A stretch of 64,000 nucleotides of DNA from an uncultured Anaerolineae bacterium. GTDB taxonomy: Bacteria > Chloroflexota > Anaerolineae > VGOG01. Position numbers and translations under genes: made by a program. Below the pieces are notes generated by a model, which saw only the letters and a program-made list of their open reading frames with translations, ran no database searches and was not told where the DNA came from. Below, piece by piece: positions 2,472 to 59,597 of this stretch. The stretch is from NCBI GenBank assembly GCA_964510205.1, contig CAZEBW010000001.1, forward strand, positions 86,226-150,225, written 5' to 3'. Each line of letters begins with the position of its first letter. The first letter of the stretch is position 1.

Positions 2472-2632
2472 TCAATCTCCTCTCGCTGTTTCAAGCTCCA
2501 AGCGGACGAGGTTCCGCGTTTTCGCCCTTGGACCGTCGTCCAGTCAGAGCGAATTGGATCCACTGAGTCCGCCAACCTACCGACCTCTACCGCGATTATA
2601 CAACGGCTTCCTCGCAATGTCAACAAAATACG

Positions 2633-3478
2633 CTAAAACACGCAGCACTCCCGGCCCTGCACGATGCTCAGACCTAACTCCGTGGCCAGTTGCACAGCTT
2701 GGCGGGCGGGACTCACGATTTTGTTGACGCCAGCCCGCACGGCCAGGGGATCTAAACTAGCCCGATACTTGCCGTGGGGCCGCATGCAGCCGAGGTGAAT
2801 GGGTTTGTCGGGGAAGCGCAGCCGGGCCTCGGCCAGAATGTTGACCACAGCCTCAATGGGCGGCGGCGGGCGGTCGGCGTAGCGGGTGCCGCTGGTGGGC
2901 GTGAAAACGATAAGCACCAGGCCATCTACCCCCAGCTCCCGGAGCTTTTCCATGGCTGCGCGCTCGTGGCCCAGATCGCCCCCGCGCAAGCCGATGGTGA
3001 TGTGGGGAATCACCGTGGTGTGTCGGCGGAGCATCTGGTAAGTTTCCACGTAGTCGGCAATGGTACGATCGAGACCGTAGACCTCGCGGATGGTCTCATC
3101 GTCGCCCACGAAGTCGAAGGACACCACATCGGTGTAGGAGGCGATGGCGCGGAGGTCTGCCTCCTCAATGAGTCCCACGTGCCAATTCATCTTGCGCCCC
3201 TGGCGGATGGCCTTGATCTGTTCAAGATGCTGCGTCACCGGCACGCGCCCTGAGGCGTCGCAGCCGCCGGAGATGAGGCAACTGCTGGCTCCCCCCATCT
3301 CTGCTCGCCAGACGGGGGTCATGTGCTGAAGGTAATACCCGCCGCAGTGGGCACAGTCCAGCTCGCAGTGATGCCCGGTGAGGCTGATGAGGGCGGTATC
3401 GAATGGATACACGAACTCGATTTCTGGGGAGAAGTGCGCCTGTCTGACTCGCCAGGCCTCTTCTAGACTTTCGTACAT
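2633..3478 (-). CDS. radical SAM protein (BioB/LipA-like fold, function unknown)
   Basis: CELDCAHC = CxxxCxxC cluster motif near the N-terminus. ATG 3478 is preceded by GGAG; the track start at 3496 is a TTG without an RBS. Confidence 0.75.
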   Translation of the reverse strand: MYESLEEAWRVRQAHFSPEIEFVYPFDTALISLTGHHCELDCAHCGGYYLQHMTPVWRAEMGGASSCLISGGCDASGRVPVTQHLEQIKAIRQGRKMNWHVGLIEEADLRAIASYTDVVSFDFVGDDETIREVYGLDRTIADYVETYQMLRRHTTVIPHITIGLRGGDLGHERAAMEKLRELGVDGLVLIVFTPTSGTRYADRPPPPIEAVVNILAEARLRFPDKPIHLGCMRPHGKYRASLDPLAVRAGVNKIVSPARQAVQLATELGLSIVQGRECCVF

Positions 3479-3540
3479 GGTGTCTCCAGCTTCCAATTGT
3501 TGACCCTGCTTTCACCTGGGATTCATGGGGTTCGTACTGA

Positions 3541-5599
<2,059 letters not shown>

Positions 5600-8837: not shown

Positions 8838-8980
8838 AGCAAGTTACGTCCCCCAAGAAGGCAGAAAATCCGAAAGAACCAAATAAACTATAGCATGATC
8901 TCAGATTCTTGTCAAGGCAGCATCTTGCCCAGGGTGCATTTCAGTCGGGTGTGTTTCAGGGGAGTTGGCTGGTACTGTTG

Positions 8981-9023
8981 GTCGGAATGGTATTCCGACG
9001 AATTGACGGATTGCCAATCCGTC
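8981..9023. repeat. two adjacent short hairpins (GTCGGAATggtATTCCGAC, GACGGATTgccAATCCGTC), GACGGAT family
   Basis: Perfect 8-bp stems read directly. Related to the hairpin at 34560..34594. Confidence 0.6.
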
Positions 9024-9092
9024 CTACAACCGCGTCGAAGGGCACGTCTTTGCAAGACCCCCAGCGTAGGGCCATCCATGCGGCGTCCGCTG

Positions 9093-9121: not shown

Positions 9122-9147
9122 TTAGGACAGTGGCAATTACTCAGCCT

Positions 9148-9174
9148 GCTCGGCTTGGATCGCCAGATCCAAGC
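9148..9174. repeat. GGATCGCCAGATCC-core palindromic element (short copy)
   Basis: gctcggcttggatcgccagatccaagc. Near-identical copy at 39696..39722, and the same core occurs twice inside the nrdD spacer. Confidence 0.7.
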
Positions 9175-9284
9175 TACAGTGCTCAAGAGTGGCACGCACT
9201 TCGGCCTGCCAAACCGCTGGATTTGGCAATCCAACGGGAGCCTGAGCAGTTACGGACAGCGAGAATTAGAGAGGGGTAAAGCAG

Positions 9285-11535: not shown

Positions 11536-11639
11536 TCGCTGGTCCTCTGCCCAAAAGACCCTGGGTGGGTGAAATGAATTGGACAAATTCACCAAGATAG
11601 TGTATACTACTTACCACACAGCGTAACTGTTCATATCGT

Positions 11640-11714
11640 GTCATTGCGAGGCGACGCTTTTCCGCCGAAGCAATCCCCGTGCATTGGAGATTGCTTCGCT
11701 TCGCTCGCAATGAC
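11640..11714. repeat. nested palindromic element, family 1 (GTCATTGCGAGG ... CGAAGCAATCCCC ... GGAGATTGCTTCG ... CTCGCAATGAC)
   Basis: Arms read directly. Other copies at 16051..16136, 57810..57977 and 59510..59597, plus solo arms. Confidence 0.85.
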
Positions 11715-11756
11715 AGCCTGAGTAGTCGCGACACAGCTTGAAAAGGGAGGCAAGAT

Positions 11757-16027: not shown

Positions 16028-16155
16028 ACAATGTTAACTTCCGCGTCAGTGTCATTGCGAGGCGCGCTGTCTGCGCCGAAGCAATCCCCAAGTCGCTGAT
16101 AGGAGATTGCTTCGCCCCTGCGGGGCTCGCAATGACATTAACTTAACATTGTCCA
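16028..16155. repeat. family 1 nested palindromic element with an extra outer arm pair (GACAATGTTAA / TTAACATTGTC)
   Basis: Core at 16051..16136 matches the other family 1 copies. Outer arms read directly. Confidence 0.85.
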
Positions 16156-28741: not shown

Positions 28742-28956
28742 CCTGCCTTCCGCCCCTCTCTGGGGGTGAACCCGATGCCCTGCGCCCGAAGAACGGCCAT
28801 AGTATACTACAACTTGCCGATATACACAAGCAGATCAGTACAAACACCGAGAAACAGTGCACAATGCCGGCAAATACAGTTGTCCCAAGAGCATGGCGTG
28901 AAAAAGCACAAGAGCCACCAGGCTGGTATGCCGGTGGCTCATTACTTTGGATGACT

Positions 28957-29095
28957 CCCCCGAAGAAAGCAGCGTGAAGACCCTAAAGGTTTTGAATAAG
29001 AAGGTTCGAATGGATTTTCTCGCACTCAGCGTCTGTTCCAGGCAAAGAAATCGAGCTTTCTATCGAAAACCTTTAGGGTCTTGGCAAAGAGCCAC
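28957..29095. repeat. family 3 MITE-like element (TIR AGACCCTAAAGGTTTT / AAAACCTTTAGGGTCT), copy A
   Basis: Core 28978..29081 aligns by eye to 33083..33186 in the same orientation, with about 11 mismatches in 104 nt. Flanks are also similar. Confidence 0.85.
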
Positions 29096-29096
29096 G

Positions 29097-29705
29097 TCAT
29101 TCGGCGCCAAAACGCAGGCTTTCGAGCATGGCTTCGAAGATGGGCCAGTTTTGATCCCACTCACTGAGCGGGGCATCGGCGACGATGGCGGCGGAAACCC
29201 TCGCTGCGCCCTCGCCGTCTGCCATCCCGACCAGGTAGACCTTGTGCCTGACGCCAGAGGCAGCATGGACGTACTCCGCGGTGAGCTTGCGGCCTCCCCT
29301 CTCGCCGAGAAGCAGCGGCGCGGCCTCACCGACCTGCCAGTCCTGTTTGGCCTCACCGCCCAACGCCTGGACAAGAGACAGCGCTTCATCTAGAATCTGA
29401 TCGGCATCCCGGCCTTCATCCCATCCGGAGAGAACAATCAGCTCAGGCGCGCTCTCCTCCACCGTCTCCCTGAAGATCATGGCGTCGAGGCCCTCCAACA
29501 CCGTCCTCTCCACGATCCACCCCTCGGGGTACTGGATGGATAGCTTGGCCTCCTCGTCGGCGTAGGTTTTGAAATCCCCTGAAGCCAGCGGGGTGGGCAT
29601 CGGGGTCGCAGCGGGCGGCGCGGGCGTGCAGGAGAGCAGCGAGACCACGAGCAGCGTCAGCAAGCCCACCATCGAGACGAGCCGATAGGTCCGGGACCGC
29701 ATCAT
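29097..29705 (-). CDS. hypothetical lipoprotein
   Basis: MMRSRTYRLVSMVGLLTLLVVSLLSC lipobox. ATG 29705 overlaps the nrdG stop (ATGA). GGAGGTGGAGG RBS. Confidence 0.6.
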   Translation of the reverse strand: MMRSRTYRLVSMVGLLTLLVVSLLSCTPAPPAATPMPTPLASGDFKTYADEEAKLSIQYPEGWIVERTVLEGLDAMIFRETVEESAPELIVLSGWDEGRDADQILDEALSLVQALGGEAKQDWQVGEAAPLLLGERGGRKLTAEYVHAASGVRHKVYLVGMADGEGAARVSAAIVADAPLSEWDQNWPIFEAMLESLRFGAE

Positions 29706-30397
29706 AATCCTCTCACCTCCACCTCCCCTACCCATCTCTCCGCTGCCTGGGCCATCTCCAGCAGCGTCTGGGCTGGATAGGGAGCGATCTCTCTAAAGCG
29801 GGCGGCAAGGGCTCCCTGGGGACGAAATTGCTGCAGGACGTACTTCTCAGCACCGCTGATCAGCCTGGCCATCTCCTCGACGTCCTCAGGAGCCACGATG
29901 CCCAGCGCCACCGTGGTGCGGAACTCGTGGTCTATGCCCGACGACAGGATCAGCCGCACGCTCTCTTCGATCCGCTGCACGTCCACCGGCACGCCTGCCG
30001 CCAGATGATACTTCGACAGCGGGGCCTTGATGTCCATAGCCACGTAATCCAGCAGCTCCTGCTCCAACAGCTCTCTGAGCGCCTGGGGGCGATAGCCGTT
30101 GGTGTCCAGTTTGATGGCCAAGCCCAGTCCTTTCAGCTCGCCCACGAAACTGCCGATGCCTGGCCGCAAGGTTGGCTCGCCGCCGGTGATCACCACCCCA
30201 TCAATCAGACCCCGTCGCCGTGTCAGGAACCGGAAGATCTCGACGGGGTCAAGGTCTGGCAAGGTCTGCGGATGTAGCACTAGCTTCGAATTCTGACAGT
30301 AGGGACAGCGAAGGTTGCAGCCGCCGGTGAAGACGACGGTGGCGATCCTCCCCGGATAGTCAATGAGCGAGGTTTTCACCCACCCCTTGATCTGCAT
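29702..30397 (-). CDS. nrdG: anaerobic ribonucleoside-triphosphate reductase activating protein (radical SAM)
   Basis: WVKTSLIDYPGRIATVVFTGGCNLRCPYCQN and GVVITGGEPT. Confidence 0.92.
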   Translation of the reverse strand: MQIKGWVKTSLIDYPGRIATVVFTGGCNLRCPYCQNSKLVLHPQTLPDLDPVEIFRFLTRRRGLIDGVVITGGEPTLRPGIGSFVGELKGLGLAIKLDTNGYRPQALRELLEQELLDYVAMDIKAPLSKYHLAAGVPVDVQRIEESVRLILSSGIDHEFRTTVALGIVAPEDVEEMARLISGAEKYVLQQFRPQGALAARFREIAPYPAQTLLEMAQAAERWVGEVEVRGL

Positions 30398-30549
30398 CTG
30401 TCAACTGTCCTGACCTCCACCACGTATTCCTCGCGCTCGGCATACTCCTGCTTCTTGCCCACGTTCCAGTTCCGCACGGGACGCAGATAGCCGACAATGC
30501 GAGAGTAAACCTCACAAGGCACCTTTCTCTTCGACTGCGAGTTTGTCAT
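30376..30549 (-). CDS. nrdD: stand-alone glycyl-radical segment of class III RNR (C-terminal piece of NrdD, 57 aa)
   Basis: MTNSQSKRKVPCEVYSRIVGYLRPVRNWNVGKKQEYAEREEY contains the RxxGY glycyl-radical loop. AAGGAG lies 7 nt before ATG 30549. The longer track ORF start is inside the palindromic spacer. Confidence 0.65.
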   Translation of the reverse strand: MTNSQSKRKVPCEVYSRIVGYLRPVRNWNVGKKQEYAEREEYVVEVRTVDRCRSRGG

Positions 30550-30575
30550 TTCACGTCTCCTTCTCATCGCATGGT

Positions 30576-30807
30576 GACAAAAGCGACACGCTCGCTCGCG
30601 ATGGATTGTCAAATCGCATTGCGGTAAAAGTAACACTTCCACGCTCGCGATGGATTGCGTGCAAGCTTCGCTTGCCTACCATCGCCCGGCGGCTGGATCT
30701 GGCGATCCAGCCGGAGCAAAGTGTGACTTTTACCCTAGTGCGTCAAATCCGTCGCTTTCCGTGGCTGGATCTGGCGATCTAATCGGAGCGAGGTGCGACT
30801 TCTGCCC
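30576..30807. repeat. nested palindromic element between the two nrdD ORFs (four related arms, GGATCGCCAGATCC core)
   Basis: Direct arms 30576..30608 and 30623..30657. Inverted arms 30689..30735 and 30763..30807. Central hairpin gcaagcttcgcttgc. Confidence 0.8.
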
Positions 30808-30830
30808 TGATGCTTCTGGTCTCTTGCCTC

Positions 30831-32903
30831 TCAAGGTTGGATGGTCACGCCAAAACGGGCTAAGTCCTCTTCTGTGTGTTCAAAGGGGCAGTAGGTGTGT
30901 TCGCCGGGCAGATAGCCGTGGATGGGACAGATGCTGAACGTGGGGGTGAGCGTATAATACGGCAGGCGGAAGTTCTCAGCGATGCGCCGCACCAACAGGC
31001 GCGCCTGCCGCCAGTCGTCTATCCTCTCGCCCAGGAAGGCGTGGAACACCGTCCCGCCGGTGTAAAGCACCTGCAGGTCGTCCTGGTGCTCCAAAGCCTC
31101 GAAGACGTCGTCGGTATGGCCCACCGGCAAGTGGGTGGAGTTGGTGTAATAGGGCGCTTCGTCCGTGCCCGAAGTGACGATGGCCGCGAACTTGGCCTTG
31201 TCCGCCTTGGCCAGCCGATAGCTGGCCCCCTCGGCGGGGGTGGCTTCCAGGTTGTAGAGGCTGCCCGCCTCCGCCTGGAAAGTCTTCAGCTTCTCTCGCA
31301 TAAATTGAAGCGTTTTCAGAGCGAACGCCTTGCCGTCGGGGTGGGCGATGCTCACTCCCAGGAAGTTGAGGCAGGCCTCGTTCATGCCGTTCAGCCCGAT
31401 GGTGGAGAAGTGGTTGGCCCAGTAAGCACCCCCCATCTTCTTGATAGCCGCCAGATAGTGCCTGGCGTAGGGGTACAGGCCCCTCTCGGTGAACCTCTCC
31501 AGGGTCTTGCGCTTGATCTCCAGGCTGGTCTTGGCCACCTCCATCAGCCGTTCCAGGCGGCGGAAGAAATCCGCCTCGTCTGCGGCCAGATAGCCGAGGC
31601 GGGCCAGGTTGATGGTCACCACGCCGATGCTGCCGGTGAGGGGATTGGCGCCGAAATAGCCGCCGCCCCGCTTGCGCAGCTCGCGGTTGTCGAGCCTAAG
31701 CCGGCAGCACATGCTCCTGGCGTCCTCCGGGTCCAGATCGCTGTTGACGAAATTGGCGAAATAGGGGATGCCATACTTAGCCGTCATCTGCCAGATGGCG
31801 TCGGGGAGGGAGTTGTCCCAGTCGAAATCTTTGGAGATGTTGTAGGTGGGAATGGGAAAGGTGAACACCCGCCCTTTGGCGTCCCCCTCCAACATCACCT
31901 CGGCGAAGGCGCGATTGATGAGGTCCATCTCGTGGGCGAAGTCGCCGTAGGTCTCCTCCTGAAACTGGCCGCCGATGATGACGGGCGTGTCGCGCAAGGT
32001 GTTGGGCGGGACCAGGTCCATGGTCAGATTCGTGAAAGGGCACTGGAAGCCAACTCTAGTGGGCACGTTGATGTTGAAGACGAACTCCTGAACAGCCTGC
32101 TTGACGCCGCGATAGTCCAGCCCGTCGTAGCGGACGAAGGGAGCTAACAGGGTATCGAAGTTGGAGAAAGCTTGAGCGCCGGCTGATTCCCCCTGGAGGG
32201 TGTAGAAGAAATTCACGATCTGCCCCAAGGCCGAGCGGAGGTGCTTGGGAGGCTTGCTCTCCGTCTTGGTGGGCACGCCGCCGAATCCCCTGATCAGCAG
32301 GTCCTGCAGGTCCCAGCCGCAGCAGTAGGCAGCGAGGATGGAGATGTCGTGAATGTGGAAGTCCCCTTCCACGTGGGCCTCCCGCGCCTCCGGGGGATAG
32401 ATCTTGTGCAGCCAGTATTGGGCCGAGATAGAGGAAGCGACGTGGAAGTTCAGCCCTTGGAGGGAGTAGTTCATGTTAGCGTTCTCGTTCACCCTCCAAT
32501 CGGACCAATCCAGGTAGTCGTCCATGAGCTTCAGGCCGTCCAGGAGCAGCTTCTCTGTGTCTCGGACCTGGGCGCGCTGCTCGCGGTAGAGGATGTAGGA
32601 CTTGGCCATGCGGACGTAGCCGTTCTCGATGAGCACGGCCTCCACCAAGTCCTGGATCTCTTCCACCGAGGGAACCTGGCCCTGGTCGAAGAACTCCCTC
32701 TCCAGGGGGGCAACGACGGCGTCGGTAATCCGCTCCACGTCCTTTCTGCCGTCCTCCTGCCCCACCGCCTGTGCCGCCTTGAAGATGGCGCTGACAATCC
32801 TCTCGCGGTCGAAAGGCACAATTCGGCCATCTCGTTTTTGCACCTGGGCTACGGGTACGCTCAACTCTTCCTCCTGCGTCTTAGATTCTCCGTCACTTCT
32901 CAT
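30831..32903 (-). CDS. nrdD: anaerobic ribonucleoside-triphosphate reductase, large N-terminal part (ATP-cone plus catalytic barrel, lacks the glycyl-radical loop)
   Basis: VQKRDGRIVPFDRERIVSAI ATP-cone and long NrdD-like core. Ends ICPIHGYLPGEHTYCPFEH...TIQP-stop without an RxxGY motif. Confidence 0.9.
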   Translation of the reverse strand: MRSDGESKTQEEELSVPVAQVQKRDGRIVPFDRERIVSAIFKAAQAVGQEDGRKDVERITDAVVAPLEREFFDQGQVPSVEEIQDLVEAVLIENGYVRMAKSYILYREQRAQVRDTEKLLLDGLKLMDDYLDWSDWRVNENANMNYSLQGLNFHVASSISAQYWLHKIYPPEAREAHVEGDFHIHDISILAAYCCGWDLQDLLIRGFGGVPTKTESKPPKHLRSALGQIVNFFYTLQGESAGAQAFSNFDTLLAPFVRYDGLDYRGVKQAVQEFVFNINVPTRVGFQCPFTNLTMDLVPPNTLRDTPVIIGGQFQEETYGDFAHEMDLINRAFAEVMLEGDAKGRVFTFPIPTYNISKDFDWDNSLPDAIWQMTAKYGIPYFANFVNSDLDPEDARSMCCRLRLDNRELRKRGGGYFGANPLTGSIGVVTINLARLGYLAADEADFFRRLERLMEVAKTSLEIKRKTLERFTERGLYPYARHYLAAIKKMGGAYWANHFSTIGLNGMNEACLNFLGVSIAHPDGKAFALKTLQFMREKLKTFQAEAGSLYNLEATPAEGASYRLAKADKAKFAAIVTSGTDEAPYYTNSTHLPVGHTDDVFEALEHQDDLQVLYTGGTVFHAFLGERIDDWRQARLLVRRIAENFRLPYYTLTPTFSICPIHGYLPGEHTYCPFEHTEEDLARFGVTIQP

Positions 32904-32924
32904 AGATGCCTCGGCCTGAGCTCC

Positions 32925-33062
32925 GCCGTGGCATGAAGTGCCACGGCTACGAAGCTACCACCCCGTAAACGGGGTTCCTAAGCCCGATTCATCGGGCGCT
33001 GCTCTGTAGCACGGCCACGCCTGTCCTGAGCAAGGTCGAAGGGTCATGGCCGTGTGCTCCTA
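32925..33062. repeat. cluster of short GC-rich hairpins in the nrdD leader
   Basis: gccgtggcatgaagtgccacggc, accccgtaaacggggt, gcccgattcatcgggc, gcacggccac...catggccgtgtgc. Confidence 0.45.
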
Positions 33063-33065
33063 CCC

Positions 33066-33200
33066 TGAAAAAAGCGGCGTGGAGACCCTAAAGGTTTTGA
33101 AAATGAAGGTTCGAATTGATTTTCTTGCATTCAGCGCCTGTTCCAAGCAGAGAAAACAAGCTTTCTATCAAAAACCTTTAGGGTCTTGCCAGCAGCCCAC
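33066..33200. repeat. family 3 MITE-like element, copy B
   Basis: See copy A. Same orientation. Confidence 0.85.
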
Positions 33201-33305
33201 CTTCTTTCAGTAGAGTCATGAATTGCAACACCAGTCTTCATCTAACCGACTTTTCATCTTCCGATCATAGCTAAAGCGACATCCCATCATCCATGACTGG
33301 AATGC

Positions 33306-33785
33306 TTATACCATGAATTCTCTTGCCCTACTTATTATCTGAGCGCATATCGTGCGAGCTTCCCCGGCCGAATCGTTCTCACGTAAGGTCTGCCCTTGTA
33401 GTAGTCTATGGACAGCTTGATCTAAGCTCATCCCTAACTGCTTTAGGGTGGGATCTTGTTCAGCCTCTAGTGTCACACGTACTCTCTCTAACGGCACTAG
33501 TACTCTATTTGTTATCTCTATGTTTGCACTCACATCCCATTTCTCTCCCTTAGCCTCTGCTATGAAGTAGGTGCGCAGTCTTATCACCTCCTCAAGCAGT
33601 GCTTCTGTCCTATCGACTATTCCTTGTAGATCACTTCTTCTCCACCGTCTCTTCTGATCATTCAGTGCCCACCTTCTCTCAAGCCAGCTACCGAAAAAAC
33701 CCAACGCGCCACCTATCAAAACACCCAACAAGCCAGCTATGGTAGCAAGGTTTTCCAGTACAACTTCAATCCAACCAGCTTGCAT
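33306..33785 (-). CDS. hypothetical membrane-anchored protein in an AT-richer island
   Basis: 159-aa ORF with one N-terminal TM (IAGLLGVLIGGALGFFGSWL) and a helical remainder. Local composition is visibly AT-richer than the flanks. Confidence 0.45.
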   Translation of the reverse strand: MQAGWIEVVLENLATIAGLLGVLIGGALGFFGSWLERRWALNDQKRRWRRSDLQGIVDRTEALLEEVIRLRTYFIAEAKGEKWDVSANIEITNRVLVPLERVRVTLEAEQDPTLKQLGMSLDQAVHRLLQGQTLRENDSAGEARTICAQIISRAREFMV

Positions 33786-39695: not shown

Positions 39696-39722
39696 GCTCG
39701 GCCTGGATCGCCAGATCCGGGC
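39696..39722. repeat. GGATCGCCAGATCC-core palindromic element in the murB-ddl spacer
   Basis: gctcggcctggatcgccagatccgggc. Confidence 0.7.
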
Positions 39723-44855: not shown

Positions 44856-46064
44856 TCAATCCCTTTTCAACAACCGCGTTCTGCCTAATCTGTGGAGCTC
44901 CTCCGCAATGCGCCGGGCCGCATCTGGCCTGGCCAGAGCCCGCGCCCGCTCGCTCATCTCGGCCAGGGCCGCCTCGTCGTTTAGGAGCTCTAGCAGCGTC
45001 GGCAACAGCCTCTCCCCCAGATCAGCGTCGGCGACCTTAACCGCCGCCCCGCGACTGACCAGGTAGTCGGCGTTGAGCTCTTGATGCTGCCCGGCGTAGG
45101 GATAGGGCACCAAGATGCTGGGCAAGCCCAGGGCCGGGAACTCGCCCAGAGTCGCCGCTCCAGCCCGCGCCACCGCCAGGTCCGCCGCAGCCAAAGCGCT
45201 GGGCATCTCCTCATGCAGATAGGCGTATGCGCGGTAGCGGCTTCGCAACCGATCGGGCAACTTGGTCCTCCTTTCCATCACCCACTCGGCGTCCAAGGGA
45301 CCACAGATGTGGATGACCTGGCAAGACTCCAACAGGCGCTCCAGGCGCTGGCTCAGCGCCAGGTTGATGCTGCGAGCGCCCCGGCTGCCGCCAAAGACGG
45401 TGACGGTCTTCGCGCCCGCCTCCAGACCGAAGGCTTCCCTGGCCTCGATTTGGTCGGCGGCGAAGAACTCGGCCCGCACTGGGTAGCCCGCCGTCAGGAC
45501 CTTGCTCTGCGGGAAATACGCTTCCACCTCCGCAAAGGACACCGCAACCCGCTTCGCCAGGCGGCTCAGGGCGCGGACGGCCAAGCCCGGCTCCAGGTCG
45601 GGCAGCAACACCAAGATCGGCACGCGGCGAAGCCAGGCGGCTGTGGCCACGGGCGCGCACACGTACCCTCCCGTGACCAGGACGACGTCGGGAGAGAAGT
45701 CGCGCACGATGCCCAGCGATTGCACGAAGCCCGCCAGCATCTTGCAGAGATTGCCGGCCACCGTCCAGGGCGCCAGGCCGCGCAGCCCCCCCGCTGAGAT
45801 AGCCGCGAAGGGCAGTCCTTCTCGCTTGACGATCCCTTCCTCCACCCCTCCCCGGCTGCCTACGTATAGGAAATTCGTACAATCGTAGATTCGTAGATTC
45901 GTAGATTCGTAGATTCGTAGATCCGTAGATTCGTAGATTCGTAGATTCGATTCCGAATTCACGAATCCCGAGTTTACGAATCCCGAATGTACCAATTTTT
46001 CAACCACGGCGAGAATTGGATATACGTGGCCGCCCGTCCCGCCGCCCGAAATCATAATGCGCAA
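44856..46064 (-). CDS. murG: undecaprenyldiphospho-muramoylpentapeptide beta-N-acetylglucosaminyltransferase with a repeat-encoded insert after the first helix
   Basis: (L)RIMISGGGTGGHVYPILAV aligns with the MRIAISGGGTGGHIYP start of Bacillus MurG, so TTG 46064 is preferred. GTG 46088, ATG 46055 and ATG 46121 are alternatives. Confidence 0.9.
   Translation of the reverse strand: MRIMISGGGTGGHVYPILAVVEKLVHSGFVNSGFVNSESNLRIYESTDLRIYESTNLRIYDCTNFLYVGSRGGVEEGIVKREGLPFAAISAGGLRGLAPWTVAGNLCKMLAGFVQSLGIVRDFSPDVVLVTGGYVCAPVATAAWLRRVPILVLLPDLEPGLAVRALSRLAKRVAVSFAEVEAYFPQSKVLTAGYPVRAEFFAADQIEAREAFGLEAGAKTVTVFGGSRGARSINLALSQRLERLLESCQVIHICGPLDAEWVMERRTKLPDRLRSRYRAYAYLHEEMPSALAAADLAVARAGAATLGEFPALGLPSILVPYPYAGQHQELNADYLVSRGAAVKVADADLGERLLPTLLELLNDEAALAEMSERARALARPDAARRIAEELHRLGRTRLLKRD
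45884..45990. repeat. octamer tandem repeat (CGTAGATT)x8 plus 15-mer x2, inside murG and translated in frame
   Basis: cgtagattcgtagattc... then ttcacgaatcccgagtttacgaatcccgaa. Encodes SGFVNSGFVNSESNLRIYESTDLRIYESTNLRIYDCT. Confidence 0.9.
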
Positions 46065-57706: not shown

Positions 57707-57747
57707 ACTTCACTCACTCCTTCGGAAAGAACGTGACTACTCAGATT

Positions 57748-57977
57748 GTCATTGCGAGCTGCTCCATAGCGCGTTCGCGCTACTCATCGGATAAGAAACA
57801 AACGTAGGTGTCATTGCGAGGAACGGCTCTGGCAGTGGGCGTTATCCTATCACCGCCGTGGCCGGCCTGAGCGGTAGCGCTGACCAACAGGCGAGTGACG
57901 AAGCAATCTCCCACGCACATTGAAGGTAATTGCTGGTGGGGGATTGCTTCGTCGCAAAAAACGCTCCTCGCAATGAC
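57748..57977. repeat. family 1 element, enlarged composite copy plus solo arm
   Basis: Solo gtcattgcgagc at 57748. Full copy 57810..57977 with arms gtcattgcgagg / cgaagcaatctccc / ggggattgcttcg / ctcgcaatgac and an expanded interior. Confidence 0.8.
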
Positions 57978-58008
57978 ACGGGCTGAGCAGTTACCGCGTA
58001 GCCAGCGC

Positions 58009-59187: not shown

Positions 59188-59509
59188 GTTCCACCTCCCG
59201 TTGGTGATTGGCTCGGGCTAAGCTACGAAGCAACAGTAATTATACAGTTTAAGTCGTCATTTGGCAAAATCACATCCACAGCGATTGAAAGCCGCCTTCA
59301 CATCCTGTCATTGCGAGCCGACCCTTGGACAGGCTCAGAGCAGGCGGCGAGCAAGCCCTTACCTTGCACACGCTTGACACCACTCGTTTTTTCTGTTACA
59401 ATCGAAAAGGTGATGCGACATGTGGGCGCCCAACGCGAACACTTTGCCAGCCAAAGGCTCCCGGGTAGTCTCCTTATGGAGTGTTGCTACGCCAACACGG
59501 GCTGTTTGT

Positions 59510-59597
59510 GTCATTGCGAGGCGCGCTGTTTGCGCCGAAGCAATCCCCAACTCGCTCGTAGGAGATTGCTTCGCTCCTTACGGTCGCTCGCAATGAC
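59510..59597. repeat. family 1 nested palindromic element (plus solo arm at 59307..59318)
   Basis: gtcattgcgaggcgcgctgtttgcgccgaagcaatcccc...ggagattgcttcgc...ctcgcaatgac. Nearly identical to the 16051..16136 copy. Confidence 0.85.

Follow-up and report, generated by a model that had tools for sequence, protein, structure and literature searches.

A naturally two-chain class III ribonucleotide reductase is very probably encoded in the genome of an uncultured Anaerolineae bacterium

The described class III (anaerobic) ribonucleotide reductases (RNRs) of phage T4, E. coli and Thermotoga maritima consist of a single-chain NrdD, with an ATP-cone, a core, CC motifs, a zinc motif and the RxxGY motif of the glycyl-radical loop, and of the radical-SAM activase NrdG. 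To our knowledge, all glycyl radical enzymes (GREs) carry the radical glycine on the catalytic polypeptide itself, and the sole free-standing radical domain is that of GrcA, which is a backup. Catalytic RNR chains can also be made from two adjacent genes whose products must assemble, as in the split class I NrdA of Aeromonas phage Aeh1. The split class II reductase NrdJa/NrdJb of Pseudomonas aeruginosa is built in the same manner (PMC4520616). The small protein GrcA/YfiD is reported to restore pyruvate formate-lyase damaged by oxygen (PMC8683613). Here we analyse a 64-kb stretch of DNA from an uncultured Anaerolineae bacterium (hereafter the window), in which nrdD, a small open reading frame (ORF) containing the glycyl-radical loop, and nrdG follow one another on the minus strand. 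This locus very probably encodes a naturally two-chain class III RNR.

The window locus has all of the features listed above for the single-chain NrdD/NrdG systems but, unlike them, its glycyl loop belongs to a separate 57-aa polypeptide with its own start. Like GrcA/YfiD, this polypeptide is a small free homologue of the radical domain found at the C-terminus of a GRE, presumably activated by the cognate activase and acting in trans. The partner of GrcA, however, keeps its own glycyl domain, whereas the large chain of the split NrdD has none. As for NrdJa/NrdJb and the Aeh1 NrdA, these belong to other RNR classes, are broken at other positions and do not have the radical residue on a peptide of its own. 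No account of a class III enzyme in split form was found in the full-text literature, of which coverage was partial and took in papers on RNR phylogeny as well as a 2026 review on glycyl radical enzymes. The architecture thus appears to be undescribed; specialists or RNRdb curators may know of it.

The coordinates of the three genes and of the features discussed below are collected in Table 1. In the large ORF, Pfam recognized an ATP-cone followed by positions 1-525 of the 562-position NRDD profile (PF13597, E = 5e-177), and NF006126 was aligned over profile positions 3-650 of 684 with 1048 bits (cut-off 548). The finger-loop CC motifs (AAYCCGWD and SMCCRLRL) are present, the corresponding columns being invariant in 60 relatives, and the zinc motif reads CPIH-x9-CPFEH. 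The protein ends with ...CPFEHTEEDLARFGVTIQP (also read ...ARFGVTIQP) and the RxxGY motif is absent from its 690 residues, in agreement with the initial annotation, which had been made from the sequence of the window and had described an ATP-cone and NrdD core devoid of this motif. The missing segment was found in the small ORF, the product of which (MTNSQSKRKVPCEVYSRIVGYLRPVRNWNVGKKQEYAEREEY...) contains RIVGY with Gly20, followed by a RPVxNWNxGK segment; the glycyl-radical loop is written VPCEVYSRIVGYLRPVRNWNVGKK. No Pfam family other than PF13597 was reported for this ORF, and NF006126 matched it at profile positions 650-683 of 684. The two pieces therefore abut at position 650 with zero residues lost, which answers a question raised by the initial annotation, namely whether anything has been lost from the zinc motif to CEVYSR. 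TIGR02495 identified the third ORF as NrdG2 (211 bits; cut-off 131).

The small ORF begins 281 nt after the stop of the large one, in another frame, and overlaps the start of nrdG by 22 nt. It is preceded by its own Shine-Dalgarno (SD) sequence and was called as a gene in the source assembly itself (P0283). The different frame, the SD and the overlap with nrdG had been reported from the sequence and were found again here. Its ATG and the N-terminus MTNSQxKRK are common to the relatives L074, L085 and L088-L090, and the SD is kept in relatives with and without the insert that occupies the spacer of the window. A promoter/terminator scan of positions 29500-33400 gave no sigma-70-like promoter and no terminator-like site in the spacer, its one terminator-like site being inside nrdD on the opposite strand. 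In public annotation, the large chain is labelled as a complete reductase, and the small ORFs bear either the name 'anaerobic ribonucleoside-triphosphate reductase' or that of 'hypothetical protein'. A large group of sequences may accordingly be misclassified in phylogenetic surveys with a length or glycine-motif filter.

To evaluate how far this arrangement extends, the large ORF was used as query against 5.8 billion proteins and the C-termini of the best 120 matches listed were read. One hundred of them, with 70-75% identity, stop at the break point of the window and are devoid of the glycyl loop; their tails read ...CPY[ED]H[ST]xE[ED]Lxx[FY]G[VI] plus a few residues, and the named members carry Chloroflexota or Anaerolineae labels. 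The other 20 are fused (P0001-P0018, with 80-90% identity to the window protein, together with P0072 and P0108), the fused NrdDs in the 80-90% range being 715-734 aa long. On contigs L001 and L002, the large chain is followed by a 45-60-aa glycyl-loop ORF and then by nrdG. A scan of GTDB with one genome per species returned 80 loci, and scripted reading of these gave 48 fused glycyl-motif matches and 20 split loci in which a small ORF follows the large one. Manual inspection added another three, which brings to 23 the split loci from named assemblies, in metagenome-assembled genomes (MAGs) of Chloroflexota, Spirochaetota and Patescibacteria. The split is thus common in public data and is not a rarity of one genome.

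Three groups of split loci can be distinguished by the residues on each side of the break. In the Chloroflexota/Anaerolineae, the large chain ends with CPYEH... and the small chain starts with ...PCEVYSR. In MAGs of Spirochaetota/Leptospirales, the tail is CPFEH... and the start is IQTEVYSR or VPVEVYSR, with no Cys. In the Patescibacteria-type MAGs, the tail is CPxCDEEIG[FY]... and the start ..QCEVYSRVVGY, with RVVGW in two. These two are L023 and L081, whose small subunits (...CEVYSRVVGWIVPVQQWN) sit 3' of large-chain stops at 4480 and 4574, and have a Trp in place of the near-universal Tyr after the radical Gly. For two stand-alone small subunits, P0384 and P0307, the labels name a Candidatus Hadarchaeum (archaeal) MAG and a Planctomycetes MAG; the split may extend past the three verified phyla, or these bins may be contaminated.

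The length of the spacer between the two genes ranged from 18 to 346 nt among the split loci, and frame offsets of 0, 1 and 2 were all represented. The longest, of 346 nt, lies 5' of the small ORF of L076. Every small ORF of these loci starts with ATG, and an AGGAG-type SD was present in the Chloroflexota and Spirochaetota loci. Variable spacers, three offsets and a start and SD of its own fit independent initiation of the small ORF and not frameshifting, bypassing or splicing. Relatives carrying the split with and without the palindrome were looked for, as had been suggested, and both kinds were found. In the palindrome-free L074 and L001, with spacers of 53 and 85 nt, the same stop, SD and ATG are present (GAAAGGAGAC...AAATGACA[AG]AC...).

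The small ORF was also examined on its own. An exhaustive HMMER search with the 57-aa sequence against 1.84 billion cluster representatives (E <= 0.001) gave 3028 matches, and the best 150 representatives (50% identity clusters) were all stand-alone proteins of 49-163 aa, with a Met start in 146 of the 150. The ratio of nonsynonymous to synonymous substitution rates (dN/dS) over the 34 codons of its core was 0.066 against L084, which shares the insert of the window, and 0.07-0.17 against other relatives with unsaturated dS. The value obtained with L084 indicates that purifying selection on the small ORF continued after the insertion. Taken together, these surveys indicate that the two-chain layout is widespread and conserved over many lineages. 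The break at this site would have originated on at least two occasions, given the different large-chain tail of the Patescibacteria group.

The zinc site was compared in split and fused chains, since the initial annotation had proposed that the Cys of PCEVY supplies the fourth zinc ligand in trans. In the Thermotoga NrdD, the ligands (CxxxHx6CxxC) all precede the glycyl loop (PMC4493059). The window motif, C-x2-H...C-x3-H, differs from this one as well as from the CxxC...CxxC of T4 and E. coli. CPxH...CPxxH is carried by 115 of 122 split large chains, and its final His is invariant in alignment A2; fused relatives have CPxH...CPxC and the Patescibacteria large subunits retain the full CPxC. 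A ligand in trans is unlikely, if less so for the Chloroflexota type, because Spirochaete small chains are devoid of that Cys and have T or V at its position. By analogy with Thermotoga, all four ligands probably lie in the large chain. After the zinc motif, Lxx[FYWH]G was observed in 93 of the 115 split chains of CPxxH type versus 1 of the 20 fused chains belonging to this clade, and this tail may be a docking element.

We propose that the 690-aa chain would provide the zinc-binding subdomain in addition to the ATP-cone and to a catalytic barrel bearing the thiyl-radical cysteine loop, while the 57-aa chain, translated from its own SD and ATG, would supply the RIVGY loop, which normally forms the C-terminal ~40 residues of NrdD. 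NrdG, translationally coupled 3', would abstract hydrogen from Gly20 of the small chain. The latter would then dock into the barrel and place the glycyl radical beside the finger-loop cysteine, as in single-chain NrdD. In Thermotoga, the C-terminal domain has a zinc site ahead of the glycyl loop, and this loop, which lies deep in the barrel, has to leave it when the enzyme is activated (PMC4493059). The break would thus fall between the zinc subdomain and the very part that swings out. A sequence search of the PDB with the 138-aa junction fragment gave no match, and the 189-aa C-terminal fragment gave weak Thermotoga alignments only, sufficient to locate the break after the zinc motif and before the glycyl loop. 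If this proposal is true, the soluble 57-mer would be an activation substrate with which to study how an activase gains access to a buried glycine, and would make it possible to test directly the off-enzyme formation of a glycyl radical and its subsequent docking; the two-chain NrdD should be experimentally tractable.

The ancestry of the window gene was found to be composite. In a neighbour-joining (NJ) tree built on the part 5' of the break with 200 bootstrap replicates, the window gene nests within the fused clade. The node joining it to most fused genes (P0012, P0015, P0016 and P0018 excluded) was recovered with 99% bootstrap, and the fused genes were monophyletic without the window gene in 0 of the 200 replicates. 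At the DNA level, identity with the fused loci L003 and L004 was 80-94% over the gene body and mostly 71-88% over the small-ORF core and nrdG. Around the junction, a split-type patch (Table 1; coordinates converted from alignment positions) showed 85-91% identity to the split loci L001 and L074 by hand count from the alignment, versus a background of 60-75%, and this similarity includes the non-coding start of the spacer. Informative sites for window/L003/L001 gave a ratio of 456:86 for the body and of 4:30 for the patch (Fisher p about 2e-19); part of the patch signal comes from the non-homologous fused linker, and flanking synonymous sites agree in direction.

The simplest reading of these data is that a split-type junction recombined into a fused-type backbone, the alternative being several independent fusions yielding the same linker. 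In P0072 and P0108, a linker of ~20 residues joins the DLARFGV tail to the KKIPCEVY start, both of them retained, and these proteins look like read-through fusions of a split ancestor; at least two fused groups lie within the split clade. Fused and split forms would therefore interconvert, which argues that both work, and the mosaic gene suggests that they are interchangeable in nature. Some large subunits of this clade, among them P0017 (1190 aa), P0091 (1151 aa), P0110 (1147 aa) and that of L076 (match 2501-5446), are ~450 residues longer than the others. P0017 carries PF14528, a LAGLIDADG-type intein endonuclease family, and inteins seem to be present in fused and split versions alike.

Most of the spacer of the window is filled by a palindrome, described by the initial annotation as having four related arms, two of them direct and two inverted, about a central hairpin. 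This description was confirmed, the centre GCAAGCttcGCTTGC lying at 30661-30676, and the stop of the large ORF does precede the first arm, at a distance of 17 nt and not of 24 nt as had been given. The structure was resolved by excising the inner copy before realigning. The palindrome is one element resembling a miniature inverted-repeat transposable element (MITE), which entered, with an 8-bp target-site duplication (TSD), the loop of an earlier copy from its own family, itself landed a short way 5' of the SD. The four arms and the hairpin at their centre are thus two elements, one nested in the other. The outer one has imperfect terminal inverted repeats (TIRs), GCATCAGGGCAGAAGTCGCAC / GCATGGTGACAAAAGCGACAC, which match at 13 of 24 positions, and an internal AGATCGCCAGATCC hairpin. 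The inner one has TIRs matching at 19 of 24 positions, a GGATCGCCAGATCC hairpin and a central GCAAGCgaaGCTTGC hairpin (30661-30676), and is flanked by a perfect 8-bp duplication.

The history of these insertions could be read from the close relatives recovered, L084, L088, L089 and L090, among which the large chains of L088 and L090 show 93-94% identity to the window over the stretch that could be compared (176-332 residues). Between stop and SD, L088 contains one palindromic element of 110 nt, with a perfect 8-bp duplication, GATTAGAA, on both sides. Removal of this element leaves a ~26-nt spacer, TGAAGCAAAGGATTAGAAGGAGACGTGAAATG, which at its beginning resembles that of L001, a more distant relative. 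The inner element is absent from the otherwise collinear L088, L089 and L090, where GATTTGAC is single, and the right arm of the outer element is present in L084. In L089 and L090, the outer element is accompanied by an unrelated element of ~117 nt, with a terminal repeat GGGTGTGTTTCA and a flanking duplication AAAAGATTAG. A copy of this latter family was also seen in the window at ~8948-9045 (GGGTGTGTTTCA...ACGGATTGCCAATCCGTCCTACAACC). The reading of the initial annotation, a genuine two-gene arrangement the junction of which was later colonised, is thus supported: element-free relatives keep the stop, SD and ATG, the insertions are stepwise and the small ORF is under purifying selection.

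The gap between the two genes seems to be tolerant of insertions in general. A metagenome DNA scan for the SD-to-ATG junction gave no further palindrome copies and two relevant contigs only, L085 and L087, with 83-nt spacers containing a different small hairpin of 27 nt, CTGGCGnAGGTTACAAACCTTCGCCAG. The spacer of L005 (about 2845-2965) contains GCGGATC repeated four times in tandem. The short spacer is therefore a repeated and tolerated landing site for mobile elements, and the stop, SD and ATG survive every insertion. The palindrome itself is secondary, ordinary mobile DNA, of which the nesting is uncommonly clear, and no part of the design of the enzyme.

Within the window, GGATCGCCAGATCC with at most one mismatch occurs four times, versus 0.07 expected by chance, at 9157, at 39705 and twice in the spacer, in line with the shared core that had been noticed earlier. 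A terminal-repeat search of the 64 kb found no full copies of the element beyond the two in the spacer. A separate palindromic element lies at 9127-9255, with a GCTCGGCTTGGATCGCCAGATCC hairpin and a GGATTTGGCAATCC loop as in the spacer elements and with different ends. The family has not been assigned to a named element and its transposase partner was not identified, no transposase search having been made. Correia elements of Neisseria are MITEs inserted within operons. The elements described here resemble them in being non-coding, of ~110-126 nt, with TIRs and TSDs, located between co-transcribed genes and able to form long RNA hairpins, and differ from them by the 8-bp duplication and by the nesting of one copy in another. 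A 65-aa fragment of a Y1 transposase (PF01797) was seen in L088 at 3117-3314, ~2 kb 3' of nrdG, and may have to do with how hairpin repeats are mobilised in the lineage of the window.

Once transcribed into mRNA, the two elements would together form one long hairpin without a U-tract. The predicted fold of the spacer RNA has an energy of -120 kcal/mol (z = -5.8 versus shuffles) and leaves unpaired the last ~25 nt, including the SD, which stands just 3' of the hairpin base, and the ATG. The ribosome-binding site would thus be free of the hairpin, so that the small gene and nrdG should remain expressible. Rfam gave tRNA only in the whole window at gathering thresholds, and no match in the spacer when 28800-33300 was searched at E <= 1.

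Table 1. Position of the genes, signals, inserted elements and junction patch in the window
Feature	Position	Strand	Remarks
nrdD large subunit	32903..30831	-	690 aa; ATP-cone PF03477 and PF13597
Small glycyl-loop ORF	ATG 30549 to 30376	-	57 aa; PF13597 profile 531-562
nrdG activase, radical SAM	30397..29702	-	231 aa; TIGR02495 and PF04055
Shine-Dalgarno AAGGAG of the small ORF	30557..30562	-	7 nt 5' of ATG 30549
Outer MITE-like element	30569..30813	-	245 bp with insert; 111 nt minus the inner element and one TSD copy
Inner MITE-like element	30616..30741	-	126 nt; same family, in the loop of the outer element
Inner-element TSD GATTTGAC, left copy	30742..30749	-	+ strand reads GTCAAATC
Inner-element TSD GATTTGAC, right copy	30608..30615	-	+ strand reads GTCAAATC
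Split-type junction patch (putative recombinant)	30494..30911	-	from codon L665 of the large ORF (..HGY followed by LPGEHTYCPFEHTEEDLARFGVTIQP and the stop) via the spacer to ~codon 19 of the small ORF

Several points weigh against a functional two-chain reductase at this locus. The split NrdD protein, its activity and its radical are all deduced from sequence. The split loci seen all come from MAGs or metagenome contigs, and none was found in a cultured organism. The docking geometry received no support from an AlphaFold2 model of the natural fusion P0072 (60 aligned relatives), in which the mean predicted local distance difference test (pLDDT) score was 73 and fell below 50 over residues 641-725; most aligned sequences are devoid of the C-terminus. 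The recombination would be read from an NJ tree and from a short patch partly aligned to a non-homologous fused linker. With a hairpin of such low predicted energy in the spacer, the small gene and nrdG could be expressed at a reduced level in this strain. Finally, our view is that of a 64-kb window, and a second RNR may exist elsewhere in the genome.

The role of the split can be seen in another manner, in which the small protein would be a replaceable unit similar to GrcA, activated in the free state and exchanging on the large chain, so that repair after oxygen damage would cost 57 instead of ~750 residues and the split would be adaptive. GrcA/YfiD's restoration of pyruvate formate-lyase after harm from oxygen offers a precedent, and the split persists in many lineages, was seemingly re-acquired in that of the window and would have arisen at least two times at the same site, with a different tail in Patescibacteria. 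Exchange is, however, proposed by analogy, repeated fusions inside the split clade suggest that any advantage is not strong, and the small chain is obligatory and not a spare, since the large chain has no glycyl domain. We consider this adaptive explanation as tentative. In its general form, it would make the split NrdD a distinct GRE architecture, in which a dissociable radical peptide of 45-60 residues is activated by NrdG, delivered to a radical-free chain and exchanged on it, a possibility that we put forward with as much reserve. Such a peptide would be a protein-derived replaceable cofactor allowing cheap repair after oxygen damage; it would explain the retention of the split, its re-acquisition by recombination and its independent origin in Patescibacteria, and might account for the oxygen tolerance of some anaerobes.

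The remaining explanations dispense with a two-chain enzyme, and each of them appears far less probable than exchange of the peptide. According to the first, a fused nrdD was broken by the palindromic insertion and its 3' fragment is decaying. The closest large-subunit relatives (80-90% identity) are indeed fused and the 245-bp repeat stands exactly at the break, but the stop codon is located 5' of the element and outside it, and is shared, together with the SD and ATG, by element-free relatives. Moreover, the element of L088 entered a pre-existing spacer with a clean duplication, the low dN/dS of the small-ORF core has been maintained since the insertion, and the large ORF and nrdG are both intact. 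A pseudogene is therefore contradicted by the data and very improbable.

The locus might also be a chimera, in which reads of fused and split type were joined or the palindrome was mis-assembled, a suspicion that the mosaic of two ancestries and the breaking of two other assemblies within the repeat could raise. Independent data nevertheless contradict it. A Logan contig (SRR7048218) is 100% identical to window positions 30714-33092, reproduces the 5' mosaic boundary and includes the stop and the first 117 nt of the palindrome, where it breaks. The split junction and parts of the element recur, with 6-12% divergence, in three JGI samples (3300034987, 3300057013 and 3300056889), the contigs of which share the 3' mosaic boundary, MTNSQP[KE]RKV... 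then RPVRNWNVGK. An assembly artefact, which the initial annotation had kept in view along with a pseudogene, is slightly less probable still than the latter.

Bypassing in gene 60 and a group I intron in nrdD are both present in phage T4, and such precedents, together with a highly structured spacer and seven loci with a frame offset of 0, in which one stop might be read through, could suggest a single polypeptide made by recoding (a frameshift, read-through of the stop or bypass of the hairpin by the ribosome), by splicing the spacer out of the RNA or by trans-splicing of the protein. This is as improbable as a chimera, given spacers of very different lengths in three frame offsets, a window spacer recently inserted and missing from close relatives, the absence of any Rfam match in it, the lack of intein sequence flanking a break where the profiles abut, and a conserved SD and ATG that argue for separate initiation. 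An intron, an intein or a recoding site was also considered as a candidate in its own right and rejected, as there is no conserved intervening structure and the spacers of relatives are variable and mostly short.

Other features were noticed around the two-chain locus. The 5' leader of nrdD (32904-33040) contains four GC-rich hairpins in series and gave a weak, sub-threshold match to Rfam HgcC (21 bits versus a gathering score of 50, E = 0.08); in the relative L002, nrdR is immediately 5' of nrdD in place of this hairpin leader. A hairpin element of ~130 nt (GAAGACCCTAAAGGTTTTGAA...AAAACCTTTAGGGTCTT) is present in two copies, at 28955-29086 and 33060-33191, which are 87% identical, in the same orientation, and flank the cluster formed by nrdD, the small ORF, nrdG and a lipoprotein-like gene. 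A T-rich run lies 3' of each copy on the operon strand, and these copies may be terminators or another repeat family. Elsewhere in the window, a dispersed repeat family (GTGTCATTGCGAGG...CGAAGCAATCCCC) occurs in both orientations in at least 6 copies or fragments (11623-11730, 16035-16119, 57732-57994 and 59293-59578), and a tandem array at 45857-45957 consists of ~12 copies of the 8-nt unit ATTCGTAG.

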